DNA of 64,000 nt. Source: Escherichia coli. GTDB taxonomy: Bacteria; Pseudomonadota; Gammaproteobacteria; Enterobacterales; Enterobacteriaceae. Numbering within the stretch: the stretch's first letter is position 1; each line of letters starts with the position of its first letter. The translations under genes were made by a program, and so were the position numbers. Positions 3,578 to 43,710 of this stretch are shown piece by piece. The stretch is from NCBI RefSeq assembly GCF_003334315.1, contig NZ_QOWR01000010.1. The stretch is one strand, 5' to 3'. The notes beneath the pieces were generated by a model. That model did not search any database and was not told the origin of the DNA. It worked only from the letters and a program-made list of their open reading frames with translations.

Positions 3578-6400
3578 ATGGATAAGATCGAAGTTCGGGG
3601 CGCCCGCACCCATAATCTCAAAAACATCAACCTCGTTATCCCCCGCGACAAGCTCATTGTCGTGACCGGGCTTTCGGGTTCTGGCAAATCCTCGCTCGCT
3701 TTCGACACCTTATATGCCGAAGGGCAGCGCCGTTACGTTGAATCCCTTTCCGCCTACGCGCGGCAGTTTCTGTCACTGATGGAAAAGCCGGACGTCGATC
3801 ATATTGAGGGGCTTTCTCCTGCCATCTCAATTGAGCAGAAATCGACGTCTCATAACCCGCGTTCTACGGTGGGGACAATCACCGAAATCCACGACTATTT
3901 GCGTTTGTTATTCGCCCGCGTTGGCGAGCCGCGCTGTCCGGACCACGACGTCCCGCTGGCGGCGCAAACCGTCAGCCAGATGGTGGATAACGTGCTGTCG
4001 CAGCCGGAAGGCAAGCGTCTGATGCTACTCGCGCCAATCATTAAAGAGCGCAAAGGCGAACACACCAAAACGCTGGAGAACCTGGCAAGCCAGGGCTACA
4101 TCCGTGCTCGTATTGATGGCGAAGTCTGCGATCTTTCCGATCCGCCAAAACTGGAACTGCAAAAGAAACATACCATTGAAGTGGTGGTTGATCGCTTCAA
4201 GGTGCGTGACGATCTTACCCAACGTCTTGCCGAGTCATTTGAAACCGCGCTGGAGCTTTCCGGTGGTACCGCGGTAGTGGCGGATATGGACGACCCGAAA
4301 GCGGAAGAGCTGCTGTTCTCCGCCAACTTCGCCTGCCCAATTTGCGGCTACAGTATGCGTGAGCTGGAGCCGCGACTGTTTTCGTTTAACAACCCGGCGG
4401 GGGCCTGCCCGACCTGCGACGGCCTTGGCGTACAGCAATATTTCGATCCTGATCGAGTGATCCAGAATCCGGAACTGTCGCTGGCTGGTGGTGCGATCCG
4501 TGGCTGGGATCGCCGCAACTTCTATTATTTCCAGATGCTGAAATCGCTGGCAGATCACTATAAGTTCGACGTCGAAGCGCCGTGGGGCAGCCTGAGCGCG
4601 AACGTGCATAAAGTGGTGTTGTACGGTTCTGGCAAAGAAAACATTGAATTCAAATACATGAACGATCGTGGCGATACCTCCATTCGTCGTCATCCGTTCG
4701 AAGGCGTACTGCATAATATGGAGCGCCGCTATAAAGAGACGGAATCCAGCGCGGTACGCGAAGAATTAGCCAAGTTTATCAGTAATCGTCCGTGCGCCAG
4801 CTGCGAAGGGACGCGTCTGCGTCGGGAAGCGCGCCACGTGTATGTCGAGAATACGCCGCTGCCTGCTATCTCCGACATGAGCATTGGTCATGCGATGGAA
4901 TTCTTCAACAATCTCAAACTCGCAGGTCAGCGGGCGAAGATTGCAGAAAAAATCCTTAAAGAGATCGGCGATCGTCTGAAATTCCTCGTTAACGTCGGCC
5001 TGAATTACCTGACGCTTTCCCGCTCGGCAGAAACGCTTTCTGGCGGTGAAGCACAGCGTATCCGTCTGGCGAGCCAGATTGGTGCGGGCCTGGTTGGCGT
5101 TATGTACGTGCTGGACGAGCCGTCTATCGGCCTGCACCAGCGTGATAACGAGCGCCTGTTGGGTACGCTTATCCATCTGCGCGATCTCGGTAATACCGTG
5201 ATTGTGGTGGAGCACGACGAAGACGCAATTCGCGCCGCTGACCATGTGATCGACATTGGCCCGGGCGCAGGTGTTCACGGCGGTGAAGTGGTCGCAGAAG
5301 GTCCGCTGGAAGCGATTATGGCGGTGCCGGAGTCGTTGACCGGGCAGTACATGAGCGGCAAACGCAAGATTGAAGTGCCGAAGAAACGCGTTCCGGCGAA
5401 TCCGGAAAAAGTGCTGAAGCTGACAGGCGCACGCGGCAACAACCTGAAGGACGTGACGCTGACGCTGCCGGTGGGTCTGTTTACCTGCATCACCGGGGTT
5501 TCAGGTTCCGGTAAATCGACGCTGATTAACGACACACTGTTCCCGATTGCCCAACGCCAGTTGAATGGGGCGACCATCGCCGAACCAGCACCGTATCGCG
5601 ATATTCAGGGGCTGGAGCATTTCGATAAAGTGATCGATATCGACCAAAGCCCAATTGGTCGTACTCCACGTTCTAACCCGGCGACCTATACCGGCGTGTT
5701 TACGCCTGTGCGCGAACTGTTTGCGGGCGTACCGGAATCCCGTGCGCGCGGCTATACGCCGGGACGTTTCAGCTTTAACGTTCGTGGCGGACGCTGCGAG
5801 GCCTGTCAGGGCGATGGCGTGATCAAAGTGGAGATGCACTTCCTGCCGGATATCTACGTGCCGTGCGACCAGTGCAAAGGTAAACGCTATAACCGTGAAA
5901 CGCTGGAGATTAAGTACAAAGGCAAAACCATCCACGAAGTGCTGGATATGACCATCGAAGAGGCGCGTGAGTTCTTTGATGCCGTACCTGCACTGGCGCG
6001 TAAGCTGCAAACGTTGATGGACGTTGGCCTGACGTACATTCGCCTGGGGCAGTCCGCAACCACCCTTTCTGGTGGTGAAGCCCAGCGCGTGAAGCTGGCG
6101 CGTGAGCTGTCAAAACGCGGCACCGGGCAGACACTGTATATTCTCGACGAGCCGACCACCGGTTTGCACTTCGCCGATATTCAGCAACTGCTCGACGTGC
6201 TGCATAAACTGCGCGATCAGGGCAATACCATTGTGGTAATTGAGCACAATCTCGACGTGATTAAAACCGCTGACTGGATTGTCGACCTGGGACCGGAAGG
6301 CGGCAGTGGCGGCGGCGAGATCCTCGTCTCCGGTACGCCAGAAACCGTCGCGGAGTGCGAAGCTTCGCATACGGCGCGCTTCCTCAAGCCGATGCTGTAA
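3578..6400 (+). CDS. uvrA: excinuclease ABC subunit A, UvrA (940 aa)
   Basis: ORF track 3578..6400; two ABC ATPase Walker A motifs ([18 protein letters not shown]) and zinc-finger cysteine clusters. Confidence 0.97.
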
Positions 6401-37723: not shown

Positions 37724-39820
37724 TTAGCGGAAATTGACGCTACGGTCGCTGGTCATGTCATACAACTGGAACTTACGCCCAAGTTGCTGACCACCGTCAC
37801 GCGTCAGCGGCGTCCAGCCAATCGCCGCACGGCTGCGTGTCGGGCCAGACGAGAAGAGATCCAACGGTACCGAGACATACACGCCTTTGGTGAAGTCCCC
37901 TTCGCCGTATTCCTCTTTCGAAACATTAGTGATCGTGGCATAGCCACCCACCACCACGCCGCTATCAAAGCGTTTGGCGATCTCCAGCGTGCCGCCTTTA
38001 TCCCCTGCCAGATACTGCCCGACGCTGGCTTTAACTAACACATCCTGAGCGAAAGATGGCGTCCAGTAGGCGGTCAGATGTCCGGTTTTCACGCTGTAGT
38101 CGGTGAATTTCATCATATCTTTTGCACTACGCCAGTCGCGCTGTTTAACGTAGTTGGCATCCAGACCAAACGCCCAGTTGCTGTCCAGCGGGCGATACAA
38201 CACTTCTGCCCCCGCACCGCCAAACATGGTTTCGAGATAACCACCGTAGACCTGACCGTAGAAGCCGTTGCCCAGATGCTGGAAGTAGTTGGCTTGCAGG
38301 TTATTCACATAGACATCGTTCTGCACATACTCGCGCACATGGGTACGCACGCGCGGTAAGTGCGAGTCCTGCGGAGGATTAGTGTAGTTAAACTTGTCGT
38401 AGTTGTTGGCAAGATTTGCAAACAGGCTGCCGGTGGTCAGCAGATGGTCCGTCAGCCACAAATCTGCCGTTCCCATCACGCCCAGCTGATACATGTAAAA
38501 GTTTTCCGGGCCACCGACCGACTGGTTCAGCACCGGATCGATATGGAAATCAAAGCGTGATTTGTCGATATACCAGCCCTGCTCGGTGGACTGCGGAACC
38601 ACTGGCTCGACGCGTTTTTGCGCCAGCGTCGTTTCGTGGCCCAACGGCTCTCCGGCGAGATGATTTTTCAGGCTGGCGACATCGGTTTCCGTCGTCACCT
38701 GCGGCATGTTAAGGCGATTTTCCGTAATGCGGATCGTTTTGATCCCATCCGGCAGATCGTTCATCACGATCCGATTCGCACGGATGATCCCTTCGCGCGA
38801 ATCACGATATTTCACCTGCTCGCCGGTAACATACAGCGTATCGCCTTTCGCCTGGATCTGTGGATCGGCAAGTCCAGCATTGTATTTCAACAGCGTTAAC
38901 TGATTCGCCACCACCGAATGCTGCAAAATGGCATCCTGCGGCTGCGGTTGATATTGCGGGCGGGCGTTATCGTTGTAAGACGGGCGCAGATCGTTAAAGT
39001 TGGTGCGCAACGTAACGCCAAACATAAAGGTGTTGCCACGTTCATAGCTAAGGTTAACGTCGGCCCAATCGGTAACGCGATAAATCGCACCGACGTTAAA
39101 CTTACTTTTTTGCTCCAGCTTCCCGGCAAAATCCTGCTGATAATTATTGCCTTCATACTCCAGTTTCAGGCGCAGCGGTTGCCAGGGCGTCTGGTATTCC
39201 ACGCCGCCAAACAGTGAGGCAGGACCGTGGAACATCTGGCTACCGTCGATAGATCCCGCCTGTTTGTAGCTGTTATCGCGATAGCAATATTTATCACTGG
39301 CTGAACAGAGCGGATTTTTCACATTACCGCTGGTGCCCAAATATCCCCAGCCCAGGCCGAGCGTAAAATCGAACGGCCCCCAGGCTTTGCTGGCAACAAG
39401 ATATTCCGCATCAAACAGCCCCGTACCGCCGATATCCCGCGCACCAACCGCCACTTGCGGCAGCCAGTAACTCTCTTCCCACAAACGCAGTTTGAGATCG
39501 AAGGCTTTATCTTTATACGTTTGATCGCCAGAGAACGCTTCGACGCTGCTGTACTGCCGGGTGCGCACGTCGGTGTAGCGCAGCGTTGTTTCCAGCCACG
39601 GGAAGAGTTGCACTGAAGCTGAGTAATAACGGTACTGATCGTTATCGCGATAGTTCAGGCTCAACTCCCCTTCCCGCGCCATGCGTGCGGTGGGCGTTTG
39701 TAATAATCCTACGCCACCGAAATCCGACTGCGACGGGCCAATGGGCGCAGGATATGTTTCGCCGTAGCAAGCCATGCTAATGCCCAGCGCCAGTAAGCTA
39801 AGCAGATGTCTTTTTTTCAT
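37724..39820 (-). CDS. yjbH: YjbH, putative outer-membrane lipoprotein/porin of the yjbEFGH exopolysaccharide locus (698 aa)
   Basis: ORF track; signal peptide; C-terminal aromatic residue typical of beta-barrels; synteny. Confidence 0.85.
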
Positions 39821-40557
39821 TATTGGGGTATCCGCTGCGTCAGAGTCTGAAGAATGTCGGCGTTAAGGGCATCAGGCGTCTCACTCCAGACGGAGTCCGC
39901 GAGGCCAACATAAATAATGCTGCCGGGCATCGGCTCTACGTGACGCTTGTTCCAGTAAGCCACCGGCGCTTTTTGCGTGCGTCCGTCCGGGTAAACCACC
40001 CACGCGTAGCTGCGATCCGCACCGCTAAGCAGGTTCTGCCCGGAGAGATAGCTCGCCACGTCGCGACCTGGAGTGAATGGCTGCTTGCCAGGACGGCTGA
40101 TAAGCCCGAACAGCGTGACCGTGGACGGTGGTGGCCCGACCCACAGCGTGTAGTTGCCCTGCAACGGTGGGTTACCGCGTTCGGCAACGCGGACGATATC
40201 AGGATCAAGATTGATTTTTTGCCTGCCCGTCACTTTCAACGCCTGAATTTGCTGGCGTAAGGCGTTAATCGCGGCGGCATCGTCGGCGCTGGAATCTGCA
40301 GCCAGTTCTGCCAGCCGTGTCAGCAACGCCTGCTGCTGCCGCAATGCTGCCGCCGTTGCCAGCTCTTCGCTAATCACCGCACCGGGCCACCAGCTGTTTG
40401 CCAGCCGCGGTTGGCCTACCAGATCGATTAAATGCTCTGCGCCCGTTAGCGTTTTGGCCTCACTGCTGCCATTGCTGAACACCTTGACGGTTCCTGCCGC
40501 GAAGACCGATGACGCTCCCACACTCAAAAGCAACGCGACAAAAGTTTGTTTAATCAT
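39820..40557 (-). CDS. yjbG: YjbG, periplasmic protein of the yjbEFGH locus (245 aa)
   Basis: ORF track 39820..40653 is over-extended; ATG at 40557 gives the signal peptide [20 protein letters not shown]; stop overlaps the yjbH start. Confidence 0.8.
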
Positions 40558-41192
40558 TGTTTTGCCGCCTTGATGAGAGTGGTTTTCACCGGGAAATAAT
40601 CCGCGCCGAGATACTGTTCCGACTGGCGAATTTGCCCTACGCTGTCGATCCAATAGCGGTTATGCCAGCGCGCCTGGTCGGTGGAGACTTCTTCGTCCAG
40701 CACGCGAACCGGGGTTTCATCGCTGCCGACTTTGACGGTATCGGTACCATTCCATTTGAAGACTGATCGTGCGGTGGCGTAGCGTACCTGCTTATACTCG
40801 GTCCAGCCCATCGTGCGCGTCCAGGTTGCACCATCAATGATTTGTGCGGGTTTAATCAGCGGGTCGGCGGCAAGGTTATTCACTTCAATCAGGTTGTCGC
40901 CGCCAAGCAAAGTCTTCACCAGACGACCATGTTGTGTGACGAGAGTGGCTTGATCCTGAGTGACCCATTTTTGTTGTCCGTCTTCAGCGAAGGCCAGCAC
41001 CACAAACAATTGCGGCCCGCCATTAAGCTGCATGTACTGGCTGGCGTAGGGCATATTTTGAATATCATCGTCCGTCAGCTGTACGCCTGGCGTGCCGAAC
41101 AGACTGTCCCACAGTGAATTGCCCAGCTCTTTAGTCGTGGCTGAACAGGCCTGTAATAACAGGCAGATAAGAATGAGTGCAGGTCGCTTCAC
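40554..41192 (-). CDS. yjbF: YjbF, putative lipoprotein of the yjbEFGH locus (212 aa, GTG start)
   Basis: ORF track 40554..41222; lipobox-like LLQAC; stop overlaps the yjbG start codon. Confidence 0.8.
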   Translation of the reverse strand: MKRPALILICLLLQACSATTKELGNSLWDSLFGTPGVQLTDDDIQNMPYASQYMQLNGGPQLFVVLAFAEDGQQKWVTQDQATLVTQHGRLVKTLLGGDNLIEVNNLAADPLIKPAQIIDGATWTRTMGWTEYKQVRYATARSVFKWNGTDTVKVGSDETPVRVLDEEVSTDQARWHNRYWIDSVGQIRQSEQYLGADYFPVKTTLIKAAKQ

Positions 41193-41306
41193 GACTCTTC
41201 TCCAGAGGGGCAGAATAACCACACCGGAGTGTGGTTATGGTTAATCCCCTTCATATTTCAAGCCACAGATGCGATGACTCGAATTATTTTGGGGATACAT
41301 ACTTTA

Positions 41307-41549
41307 TTACTGGGTACTGGTGGTTGTGGTTGTGGTGGTCCCGGTATTAGAACCATCACCGCCACCGGTTGCCGCGAGCGCGACACCCACCGCCGAGCTT
41401 ACGGTGCTGACGCTGGTCGCGGAGGAACTCCCCGCCGAAACCGACGTTGCTGCCGACCCTGCCGCTTCGCCCACCTGTACAGGTGCAGCCCACGCAGAAG
41501 TCGCCGCAAGCGCAGATATGGCAAAAATGCCATACAGAACTTTTTTCAT
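41307..41549 (-). CDS. yjbE: YjbE, small secreted Ser/Thr/Gly/Ala-rich low-complexity protein (80 aa)
   Basis: ORF track; signal peptide [21 protein letters not shown] then a low-complexity repeat ending in a poly-Thr stretch. Confidence 0.75.
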
Positions 41550-41957
41550 AACAATTTCCCTTCATTGAATGAATGGAGATTTACCCAAAAACATTTCGGG
41601 CGGGATCGAGTATACACAACTAAAGCATGCGAATTACGGCGCGGGGAATTAGCGATGGTGTTTTAGGATAATTGGAATGAATATCAAATATAAGTTTCAA
41701 CTTATATTTAAATAACAATAAAAATCATAAACTTAAAATAAAAACAAAAGTAATTAATCTGCGTATTTTCCGAAATAAACAACGATTAAAAATCTATTTT
41801 AGGATTAACCTCACGGTATGATTTCCGTTAAATCACAGACAAGGGGATTTATCTGATAAAAAAATGCCGACATAACGTCGGCATTGTTATTAAGGTTATT
41901 TAATCAATCGTGCTATGTATTAATTGCCGAATACGATGTACATATCGGCATCGACCT

Positions 41958-42035
41958 GTAGGCCTGATAAGACGCGACCGCGTCGCATCAGGCATCGGTT
42001 GCCGGATGCGGCGTGAACGCCTTATCCGGCCTACA
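41958..42035. repeat. REP/BIME elements between pgi and yjbE
   Basis: gtaggcctgataagacgcg... and gccggatgcggcgtgaacgccttatccggcctac REP palindromes. Confidence 0.85.
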
Positions 42036-42060
42036 TAGCGGCATCAGGCATGAACGATGA

Positions 42061-43710
42061 TTAACCGCGCCACGCTTTATAGCGGTTAATCAGACCATTG
42101 GTCGAGCTATCGTGGCTGCTGATTTCTTTATCATCTTTCAGCTCTGGCAGAATACGGTTTGCCAGTTGTTTACCCAGCTCCACGCCCCACTGGTCGAAGG
42201 TGAAGATGTTCAGGATCACGCCCTGAGTAAAGATTTTGTGCTCATACAGCGCAATCAACGCCCCCAGGCTGAACGGAGTGATTTCGCGCAGCAGGATGGA
42301 GTTGGTCGGGCGGTTACCTTCGAACACTTTGAACGGCACCACGTAGTCAAGCGTTGCCGGATCTTTACCCTGATCGCGATATTCCTGCTCAACCACTTCA
42401 CGGGATTTACCAAACGCCAGCGCTTCGGTCTGGGCGAAGAAGTTAGACAGCAGTTTCTGGTGGTGATCAGAGAGCGGGTTATGGGTGATAGCCGGGGCGA
42501 TGAAATCGCACGGTACCATTTTGGTTCCCTGGTGGATCAGCTGGTAGAACGCGTGCTGACCGTTAGTGCCTGGTTCACCCCAGATAATCGGGCCAGTCTG
42601 GTAATCCACAACGTTACCGTTACGGTCAACATACTTACCGTTGGACTCCATATTGCCCTGCTGGAAGTACGCCGCGAAACGGTGCATATACTGGTCATAC
42701 GGCAGAATCGCTTCAGTTTCCGCACCAAAGAAATTGTTGTACCAGATGCCAATCAGCGCCAGCAGTACAGGCAGGTTTTTCTCGGCAGGCGTGGTGGAGA
42801 AATGCTTGTCCATCGCGTGTGCGCCAGAAAGCAGTTCAACGAAGTTATCAAAGCCGATGGAGAGAACAATCGACAGGCCAATCGCTGACCACAAAGAGTA
42901 ACGGCCGCCAACCCAGTCCCAGAACTCGAACATGTTGGCAGTATCAATACCAAACTCGCCAACGGCTTTGGCATTGGTGGAGAGCGCAGCGAAGTGTTTC
43001 GCAACGTGTTTTTCATCACCTGCCGCTTTCAGGAACCAGTCACGCGCGCTATGGGCGTTGGTCATGGTTTCCTGAGTGGTGAAGGTTTTAGATGCTACCA
43101 GGAACAGCGTGGTTTCCGGGTTTACTTTTTTCAGCACTTCAGCGATGTGAGTCCCATCGACGTTAGAAACAAAGTGCATGTTCAGGTGGTTTTTGTACGG
43201 ACGCAGTGCTTCGGTCACCATGTATGGGCCGAGGTCAGAACCGCCGATCCCGATGTTCACTACGTCAGTGATTGCTTTGCCGGTATAACCTTTCCACTCA
43301 CCGGAAATAATCGCTTCTGAGAAGGTTTTCATCTTCTCCAGCACCGCGTTGACTTCCGGCATTACGTCTTTGCCATCAACCAAAATCGGGGTATTGCTAC
43401 GGTTACGCAGCGCTACGTGCAGCACGGCGCGGTTTTCAGTGCGGTTGATCTTCTCGCCAGAGAACATCGACTTAATCGCGCCCGCCAGATCGCACTCTTT
43501 CGCCAGATCCTGTAATTTCGCCAGCGTCTCTTCGGTGATGCGGTTTTTGGAGTAATCCACCAGCATCTGATCGTCGAATGTTGCGGAGAACTTAGAAAAA
43601 CGATCGCCGTCTTTAGCAAAAAGATCGGCGATCGTAACGTCTTTCATTTCATCGAAGTGTTTCTGTAGTGCCTGCCAGGCAGCGGTCTGCGTTGGATTGA
43701 TGTTTTTCAT
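42061..43710 (-). CDS. pgi: glucose-6-phosphate isomerase Pgi (549 aa)
   Basis: ORF track 42061..43716; start [19 protein letters not shown]; sequence recognised. Confidence 0.97.

Follow-up and report, generated by a model that had tools for sequence, protein, structure and literature searches.

The closest described relatives of the yjbEFGH locus of Escherichia coli are the gfcABCD genes, in which gfcB and gfcC, and gfcC and gfcD, overlap by 1-4 bp, an arrangement shared by homologous operons and for which translational coupling was proposed as a way to keep stoichiometry (Larson et al., PMC8592465). The same study found that GfcB and GfcC form a 1:1 complex (KD ~100 nM), that GfcB pulls down both GfcC and GfcD, and that GfcC alone or GfcD alone is toxic, an effect relieved when all three proteins are co-expressed. 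A conserved trio of lipoprotein, GfcC-like protein and YjbH-like protein tied to capsule or exopolysaccharide is likewise known from Vibrio wbfDCB, Aeromonas gfcABCD and Burkholderia OtnG, a GfcC-GfcD fusion, although these are distant relatives with less than 50% identity to yjb (PMC8592465). Here we analyzed yjbEFGH in a 64,000-nt stretch of E. coli DNA (contig NZ_QOWR01000010.1; the whole stretch is called the window below), where the locus lies at 37724-41549 and is read on the minus strand. The best explanation of its organization, which we hold to be probable, is an operon in which an intercistronic hairpin sets an excess of YjbE while YjbF, YjbG and YjbH are translationally coupled and serve one outer-membrane complex. 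The gene identities, junctions, hairpin, their conservation and the YjbH fold were computed here, and Rcs control, the complex and the phenotypes are taken from published work.

The 3.8-kb segment is 100% identical at the DNA level to E. coli ATCC 8739, where its genes are annotated yjbE, yjbF, yjbG and yjbH, and according to the ATCC 8739 and K-12 annotation it is flanked by pgi on one side and yjbT, psiE and xylE on the other. Among 5426 complete E. coli genomes, 5412 hold at least 80% of the segment at 95-100% identity, and it is single-copy per genome in 5422. Judged by this near-identity and by its position between pgi and psiE, which establish orthology to K-12 yjbEFGH, the region is the known chromosomal yjbEFGH operon, nearly universal in the species. 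All four genes lie on the minus strand, which the first-pass annotation had left unstated when it described four same-strand genes: yjbE (41549-41307; ATG start, 80 amino acids (aa); Pfam PF11106, E 5.5e-33), yjbF (41192-40554; GTG start, 212 aa; PF11102, E 6.6e-63), yjbG (40557-39820; ATG start, 245 aa; PF20616 (GfcC_N) and PF06251 (GfcC_C), E 8e-50 and 2e-42) and yjbH (39820-37724; ATG start, 698 aa; PF06082, E 1e-270). There were zero matches to NCBIfam for any of the four products, while RefSeq annotation, Pfam families and PDB relatives agreed on the gene names first proposed. For comparison, orthologous loci were fetched from 80 Enterobacteriaceae species with YjbG identities of 54-96%, some counts running over 76-82 loci, and the order yjbE-yjbF-yjbG-yjbH was kept in 79 of the 82 loci examined. 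With its collinear, same-strand series of small peptide, lipoprotein, GfcC-like protein and two-barrel outer-membrane protein, yjbEFGH is by family content a textbook member of the yjbEFGH/gfcABCD envelope family. The original observation is correct and ordinary, since the overlaps and the idea of coupling are already published.

The likeness to gfcABCD extends to fine details. Both loci encode, in the same order, a small Thr-rich secreted peptide, a lipoprotein, a periplasmic protein of the GfcC fold and a 698-aa two-barrel protein, and the K-12 paralogues are 39% (YjbF/GfcB), 42% (YjbG/GfcC) and 65% (YjbH/GfcD) identical. The gfcB/gfcC junction is a 4-nt ATGA overlap and the gfcC/gfcD junction a 1-nt TGATG overlap, gfcB like yjbF begins with GTG, and in both loci a stem-loop lies in the 106-114 nt that separate the first gene from the second, with a T-rich stretch after it in gfc too. 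In contrast, the gfcA-gfcB stem-loop has a different sequence and is weaker (z -1.4), and YjbE and GfcA have only their general composition and a C-terminal ...GDG.S.NT.TTT.ST.. ending in common. Unlike gfc, yjb has no downstream gfcE-etp-etk (Wza/Wzb/Wzc-type) genes and is under Rcs control. It is not a group 4 capsule operon proper, as yjbH is followed by a hairpin, the convergent gene yjbT, and psiE.

Whether the stop and start codons truly overlap depends on the choice of starts. A mechanical list of open reading frames offered a longer yjbF from a GTG at 41222 and a longer yjbG from a TTG at 40653, and both were rejected because they bury the signal peptides behind charged extensions, lack a Shine-Dalgarno sequence, do not correspond to the starts that RefSeq annotates in ATCC 8739 and K-12, and are not kept in other genera among the 80 species; the GTG at 41192, in turn, has GGAG 7 nt upstream. 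With the corrected starts, both overlaps that had been reported for this locus persist. The yjbF stop and yjbG start share 4 nt as ATGA (40554-40557, minus strand; context AAAACAATGATTAAA, also given as ACAATGATT), and the yjbG stop and yjbH start share 1 nt (39820) as TAATG (39818-39822, minus strand; context CCAATAATGAAAAAA, also given as AATAATGAAA), so that at both junctions stop and start overlap or abut in the manner of coupled pairs. Overlaps of 4 nt (ATGA) and 1 nt (TAATG or TGATG) are the commonest junction types in bacterial operons, and a single instance is therefore not beyond chance; their retention in ~80 species and in the paralogue is. When the start nearest the E. coli start was taken, yjbF and yjbG overlapped by 4 nt in 68 of 81 loci, by 1 nt in four and by 11 nt in one, and in 79 of 80 loci the yjbF stop was overlapped by some in-frame yjbG start. 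The yjbG/yjbH overlap was 1 nt in 76 of 81 loci, 4 nt in three and 0 in one; the single outlier at this junction (L010), in which yjbE is disrupted too, looks like an assembly error. The GTG start of yjbF was equally constant (79 of 80 loci, each a different species).

Several loci depart from this pattern. In Buttiauxella, Cedecea and Dryocola (L065, L066, L068, L074 and L076; locus positions ~5900-6010), a repetitive extragenic palindromic (REP)-like sequence, TAGGTCGGATAAGCGCAGCGTCATCCGAC, stands in frame directly after the yjbG ATGA, so that YjbG either gains a long, charged stretch at its N terminus or is started from a second ATG that immediately precedes the signal peptide. In the Buttiauxella and Cedecea loci that appeared to have a gap, the ATGA start is still there and in frame, with the second ATG ahead of the signal peptide. 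No REP-like insert was seen in two further Buttiauxella loci (L079 and L080), which have both the overlapping ATGA and the second ATG. Separately, one E. coli genome (P0005) encodes a 324-aa protein with the YjbF and GfcC Pfam domains, a YjbF-YjbG fusion that probably arose by frameshift at or near the overlapping junction.

Ribosome binding differs among the four genes. The best duplex with the anti-Shine-Dalgarno sequence was -5.3 kcal/mol for yjbE, -6.4 for yjbF, -6.8 for yjbG and -3.3 for yjbH, compared with -2.0 at random positions; yjbH therefore lacks a usable Shine-Dalgarno sequence upstream, its value being near background, and very probably depends on ribosomes coming from yjbG. The conserved overlaps together with this lack strengthen the inference of coupling across yjbF-yjbG-yjbH, which we regard as well supported on these grounds, while yjbG could also initiate independently. 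The competing possibility is that the overlaps are mere genome compaction, the genes initiating on their own and the junctions being held in place by protein-level constraint on the flanking codons. The frequency of such junctions in operons at large, the well-placed Shine-Dalgarno sequence of yjbG and the second, non-overlapping ATG in Buttiauxella and Cedecea, which has its own GG-rich upstream region and precedes the signal peptide, would all suit it. Yet compaction leaves the near-background value at yjbH without explanation, and the junction type persists even though YjbG falls to 55% identity, as do the junctions in the gfc paralogue at 39-65% identity. Moreover, the toxicity of unbalanced GfcC or GfcD supplies a selective reason for coupling. 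We therefore consider compaction alone unlikely and retain coupling.

The second element of the proposed organization lies between yjbE and yjbF. The E. coli spacer measures 114 nt and forms two hairpins when folded (-40 kcal/mol, z -4.9); in most genera it is only 60-65 nt (~63 nt). The 3' hairpin (41215-41238, minus strand) reads AUAACCACAC-UCCG-GUGUGGUUAU and is followed by UCUGCCCC (UUUUGCCC in most species). All 79 loci compared have it, and its two 9-nt arms, TAACCACAC and GTGTGGTTA, do not differ in any of them, while third-codon positions of the adjacent coding DNA in the same loci are only 56-60% identical to E. coli, and the hairpin must therefore be under strong selection. Its loop is UUCG in 72 loci, UCCG in three (this window included), UACG in two, and UGCG and CUCG in one each, so that 78 of 79 are UNCG tetraloops closed by a C-G pair, a signature of RNA stability. 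The 10-bp stem (-14.3 kcal/mol) runs into a tail of UUUUG or UUUCG in most species and UUAUUCUG in E. coli, at which a consensus terminator scan made no call. The hairpin is always on the transcribed strand, and the yjbF start follows it at a distance of usually 18-25 nt, in some loci 45-82 nt. The window holds no second copy, 5421 E. coli genomes carry the element once each and without annotation, and a literature search on a yjbE terminator returned nothing useful.

These features suggest that the hairpin is probably an attenuator or messenger RNA (mRNA) stabilizer that controls how much YjbE is made relative to YjbFGH. Intercistronic stem-loops are known from papBA and from malEFG, where the element is a REP sequence, to favor the product of the first gene over those of downstream genes. 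Like these, yjb has a stable hairpin just where a gene for a small, presumably abundant product gives way to genes for machinery, with read-through to the distal genes; unlike them, the yjb element does not belong to the repeated REP sequences, stays the same from genus to genus and is capped by a UNCG tetraloop. As all four genes are co-induced, yjbF as strongly as yjbE, termination at the hairpin would be at most partial.

The very invariance of the arms allows a different view, in which the palindrome acts as DNA or as a specific protein-binding site in RNA, with a dimeric factor using it as operator or internal regulatory site, and not as a plain hairpin. Ordinary terminators usually drift, and here neither arm shows a single compensatory change in 79 loci, in an element that occurs once in the window and once per genome. 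Variation of the loop almost only within UNCG with its C-G closing pair (78 of 79) has no obvious meaning for double-stranded DNA, however, and most species have a T-rich tail next to the hairpin. The constant strand and placement ahead of yjbF, with insertions that flank the element and never enter it, also count against this view, and we know of no candidate binding factor. On balance we doubt that the palindrome works in this way and keep to a hairpin acting in the transcript.

The flanks of the hairpin have been less stable. The extra 5' hairpin of the E. coli spacer (41243-41297, minus strand) is present in Escherichia and a few Citrobacter and absent in most genera; it resembles a shortened insertion of what we take to be the enterobacterial repetitive intergenic consensus/intergenic repeat unit (ERIC/IRU) type. 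At the same site, one Citrobacter locus (L007; compare also L004 and L011) has a ~130-nt version of this extra element, presumably a longer ERIC/IRU element. In other genera, REP-like inserts lie on the other side of the invariant hairpin, which is never interrupted by insertions. A weak match to isrH at 41244-41296, under the gathering score, was attributed to the ERIC-like insert and not to a small RNA.

Published transcriptomes bear on whether the four genes form one unit. Colicin M co-induced all four, with log2 changes of 5.7, 5.7, 4.3 and 5.2 for yjbE, yjbF, yjbG and yjbH, and a LolCDE inhibitor induced them 15-, 24-, 16- and 5-fold in the same order; yjbG has in addition been described as polycistronic with yjbF (PMC8117528). 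Separate transcription, which would have undone the first description of the locus as a unit, is thus not what these data indicate. A stable hairpin with a U-rich tail after yjbE could still be taken to mean that yjbE is effectively separate and that yjbFGH is expressed mainly from a promoter of its own. We consider this very unlikely: a scan of 37000-42200 for sigma-70-like promoters gave none on the minus strand, the spacer leaves only ~63 nt in most species, the four genes are co-induced to similar extents, the gene order is kept as described above, and the locus is cited as an operon throughout the literature. The yjb operon depends on RcsA-RcsB, its polymer being undefined (PMC5461412). 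Mucoid, predator-resistant E. coli carry mutations in yjbE, yjbG or yjbH (PMC8540638), and insertion of IS1 between yjbE and yjbF or in yjbF raises colanic-acid-dependent sedimentation resistance, from which the authors inferred Rcs activation (PMC8117528). The influence on exopolysaccharide production that had been stated for this locus is therefore borne out by mucoidy and colanic-acid phenotypes in the literature, with a mechanism that is, as had been said, unclear (PMC8540638, PMC8117528).

We next consider the products. Signal peptides were judged from N-terminal charge and the hydrophobic stretch, and all four proteins, to which the first-pass annotation had ascribed signal peptides, carry positive charge at the N terminus and then a run of hydrophobic residues. 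YjbE has a Sec signal peptide with a predicted cut at AWA|AP, leaving a 59-aa mature peptide that begins with APVQ. As described from the start, the 80-aa protein is of low complexity with a C-terminal poly-Thr stretch: seven consecutive Thr residues are present, and 88% of the 59 mature residues are Ser, Thr, Gly, Ala or Val. The protein is predicted to be unstructured, and no solved relative was found by sequence. Median identity across 78 species was nonetheless highest for YjbE (90%), followed by YjbH (88%), YjbF (79%) and YjbG (67%), and the seven-Thr run and a 19-residue segment are almost invariant across species; this conservation speaks for a specific role, be it cargo, primer or anchor, rather than for simple spacing.

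The lipobox attributed to YjbF is present as LLQAC, as read by eye against the PROSITE lipobox rule, although a stricter pattern run did not match. With Ser at +2, YjbF is predicted to be an outer-membrane lipoprotein of the GfcB/YmcC family, and it matches PDB 2IN5 (YmcC = GfcB) with E 2.7e-43. YjbG is a predicted periplasmic protein of the GfcC family with both N and C domains and a signal cut at VFA|AG, and it matches the GfcC crystal structure (PDB 3P42) with E 2e-54. In some E. coli strains (P0023 and similar, for example O174:H8), YjbG is only 215-216 aa long owing to a clean deletion of 29 residues (78-106), which falls between repeated RQQQA/RQQIQA motifs.

For the 698-aa YjbH, both the PF06082 assignment and a barrel model agree with the early description of a large probable outer-membrane protein. 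An AlphaFold2 (AF2) model, built from an alignment of 54 diverse relatives drawn from 2663 representative clusters, reached a mean predicted local distance difference test (pLDDT) score of 90 and a predicted template modeling (pTM) score of 0.88. Three parts can be distinguished in it: a barrel at the N terminus (residues ~30-275), a periplasmic alpha/beta domain (~300-390) and a second barrel at the C terminus (~420-698). This agrees with published work, which describes one barrel like that of FapF, a periplasmic domain and one barrel like that of PgaA (PMC8346858, PMC9603273; also PMC11494523). In the structural comparison list, the oligogalacturonate porin KdgM (15.5), the amyloid exporter FapF (14.9) and NanC (13.9) stood highest, followed by the autotransporter-type barrels Intimin and NalP (~13) and the exopolysaccharide porins PelB (11.0), PgaA (10.6) and BcsC (10.3). 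Structure prediction had been suggested as a way to look for similarity to curli or polysaccharide secretion components. PelB, PgaA and BcsC were listed, below KdgM and FapF; no CsgG-like match was listed, and no CsgG-like fold or family match was found for the locus. Foldseek with the whole YjbH chain returned generic barrels only, which indicates that there is no solved two-barrel relative, and a search by sequence likewise yielded no relative of YjbH or GfcD whose structure has been solved and did not place YjbH in the FapF family.

Accordingly, YjbH may be likened to 12-stranded outer-membrane barrels, both the acidic-oligosaccharide porins KdgM and NanC and the amyloid exporter FapF. Unlike PgaA, PelB and BcsC, the yjb system has no tetratricopeptide repeat (TPR) or periplasmic scaffold domains and no nearby synthase genes. 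In having genes for both an outer-membrane export apparatus and a small, subunit-like secreted protein at a single locus, it recalls curli (CsgG/CsgE/CsgF). Many YjbH relatives in the search of representatives are 930-1400 aa long with an N-terminal extension of 250-350 aa, as expected for GfcC-GfcD fusions. A lipobox-like ISMAC motif, missed in the first-pass annotation, occurs at residues 16-20 of YjbH (39761-39775, minus strand), and K-12 YjbH is labeled a 'putative lipoprotein'. In GfcD, signal peptidase I cleaves at the corresponding place and the protein is not acylated (PMC8592465), and the lipoprotein label of YjbH is therefore probably wrong, with a predicted mature N terminus of ETYPAP.

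Together, these results can be arranged into a mechanism in which coupling, attenuation and the nature of the cargo are what we infer. Transcription would start at an activator-dependent promoter ~50 nt upstream of yjbE, past the pgi terminator, and yjbE, with its ATG start and good Shine-Dalgarno sequence, would yield a small secreted peptide rich in Ser, Thr, Gly and Ala. The UNCG hairpin and its U-rich tail would then halt part of the transcripts, or shield the yjbE segment from 3' decay, giving an excess of YjbE. On read-through mRNA, YjbF would be made from its conserved GTG start, and the GTG and the hairpin would together keep YjbF, YjbG and YjbH low relative to YjbE. Ribosomes that end yjbF would restart at ATGA to make YjbG, and those that end yjbG would restart at TAATG to make YjbH, which has no Shine-Dalgarno sequence of its own, so that the proportions of the three proteins would be fixed. 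If GfcB-GfcC-GfcD is a guide, they would assemble as one outer-membrane complex around the two-barrel YjbH. This complex may export or anchor a surface polymer, which might be a polysaccharide, possibly lipid-linked, or possibly YjbE itself, and its loss would cause an envelope defect that turns on Rcs and leads to overproduction of colanic acid, seen as mucoidy.

Two kinds of cargo have been discussed for such systems: a lipid-anchored polysaccharide moving through a lateral gate was proposed for GfcD from simulations only (PMC11494523), and in a published alternative an amyloid-like or O-antigen-modified small protein leaves via the small barrel (PMC8592465, PMC9603273). A more specific conjecture, which we put forward as speculative and expect to be wrong in at least some part, is that YjbE is a precisely specified cargo or surface component passing through the small KdgM/FapF-like barrel of YjbH, that the UNCG hairpin is a dedicated, possibly protein-bound RNA element setting its ratio, and that an upset of this system is what Rcs senses in mucoid yjb mutants. 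A simpler version, in which jammed YjbE alone triggers Rcs in yjbFGH mutants, was disfavored, since a yjbE insertion mutant is mucoid and a deletion of the whole operon (in an rpoS background) reportedly is too.

Several observations weigh against the hairpin-regulated, coupled operon that we favor. The Shine-Dalgarno sequence of yjbG, AAGG (-6.8 kcal/mol), is good enough that its translation need not depend on yjbF, and in Buttiauxella and Cedecea the second ATG means that the ATGA overlap may go unused. At the hairpin, the E. coli tail UUAUUCUG is a weak U tract and a simple terminator scan missed the element; its never-varying arms offer no compensatory changes and could equally be a protein-binding palindrome; and yjbF is induced as strongly as yjbE in the published transcriptomes. 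Homology between YjbE and GfcA was not detectable (BLAST E 65, and GfcA did not match the Pfam YjbE model), and in an AF2 model of mature YjbE joined by a 30-aa Gly/Ser linker to mature YjbH, YjbE had a pLDDT of 28-44 and did not dock with confidence. Finally, neither glycosyltransferase nor Wza/Wzc genes are present at the yjb locus.

The sequences bordering the operon are consistent with its limits. An intrinsic terminator of pgi (41863-41885, minus strand), with a 10-bp stem and a T run, separates pgi transcription from the yjb operon. Between it and yjbE, the best-conserved block is TTGTGTATACTCGA (41619-41606, at least 95% in 76 species), within which TATACT (41609-41614, minus strand) is a candidate -10 hexamer of a putative promoter; its poor -35 fits an activator-dependent (Rcs) promoter. 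No match to the RcsAB-box consensus with up to three mismatches was found upstream of yjbE, the six matches across the window being at chance level. Two blocks containing ATCCTAAAA, as part of a (T)TAATCCTAAAA-like motif, lie upstream of yjbE at 41677-41657 and 41813-41797 (minus strand), 134 bp apart; the distal copy is strongly and the proximal moderately conserved, and both resemble one half of an RcsB-type box. Neither was assigned as an Rcs site, as they fail the three-mismatch search and the distal copy lies inside a match to STnc430. A leader hairpin sequestering the yjbE Shine-Dalgarno sequence was also considered and dropped, its fold being no better than shuffles (z -0.9). At the other end, a 9-bp G+C-rich hairpin (37685-37712; -23.2 kcal/mol, z -3.7) between the convergent yjbH and yjbT stops is a probable two-way transcription stop marking the distal end of the operon.

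The STnc430 match is a full-length Rfam hit (41746-41895, plus strand; 77.7 bits against a gathering score of 47) in the pgi-yjbE intergenic region, on the strand opposite to both genes. A sigma-70-like promoter, ATAACA-16-TAAAAT (41712-41739, plus strand), lies just before it, and its 3' end falls at the two-way pgi terminator. It is unannotated in ATCC 8739 and K-12 and overlaps conserved blocks that could be mistaken for yjbE regulatory sites; a literature search on STnc430 found nothing useful. Directly after the pgi stop there is a REP-type element (Rfam naRNA4, 79.5 bits; 41961-42031, minus strand), and a weaker REP-like match (37264-37356; 29 bits, under threshold) lies between yjbT and psiE. 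Convergent with yjbH, yjbT (37399-37677, plus strand) encodes a 92-aa protein annotated as periplasmic, and a 47-aa 'hypothetical protein' (37255-37398, minus strand) that overlaps the REP-like region is annotated in ATCC 8739 and not in K-12.

The yjbEFGH locus belongs to the E. coli "y-ome"; it is nearly universal and strongly induced by envelope stress, and mutations in it have recurred where evolution experiments selected for mucoid cells that resist predators or sedimentation. What is added here is a count of how widely the overlaps are kept, the finding that yjbH lacks a Shine-Dalgarno sequence, the conserved GTG start of yjbF, the invariant hairpin and the conservation of YjbE. These additions are modest and leave the classification of the locus unchanged, and they sharpen a testable model of its stoichiometry: taken together, the missing ribosome-binding site of yjbH, the weak GTG of yjbF and the hairpin predict that cells would make much YjbE and little, equimolar YjbF, YjbG and YjbH.

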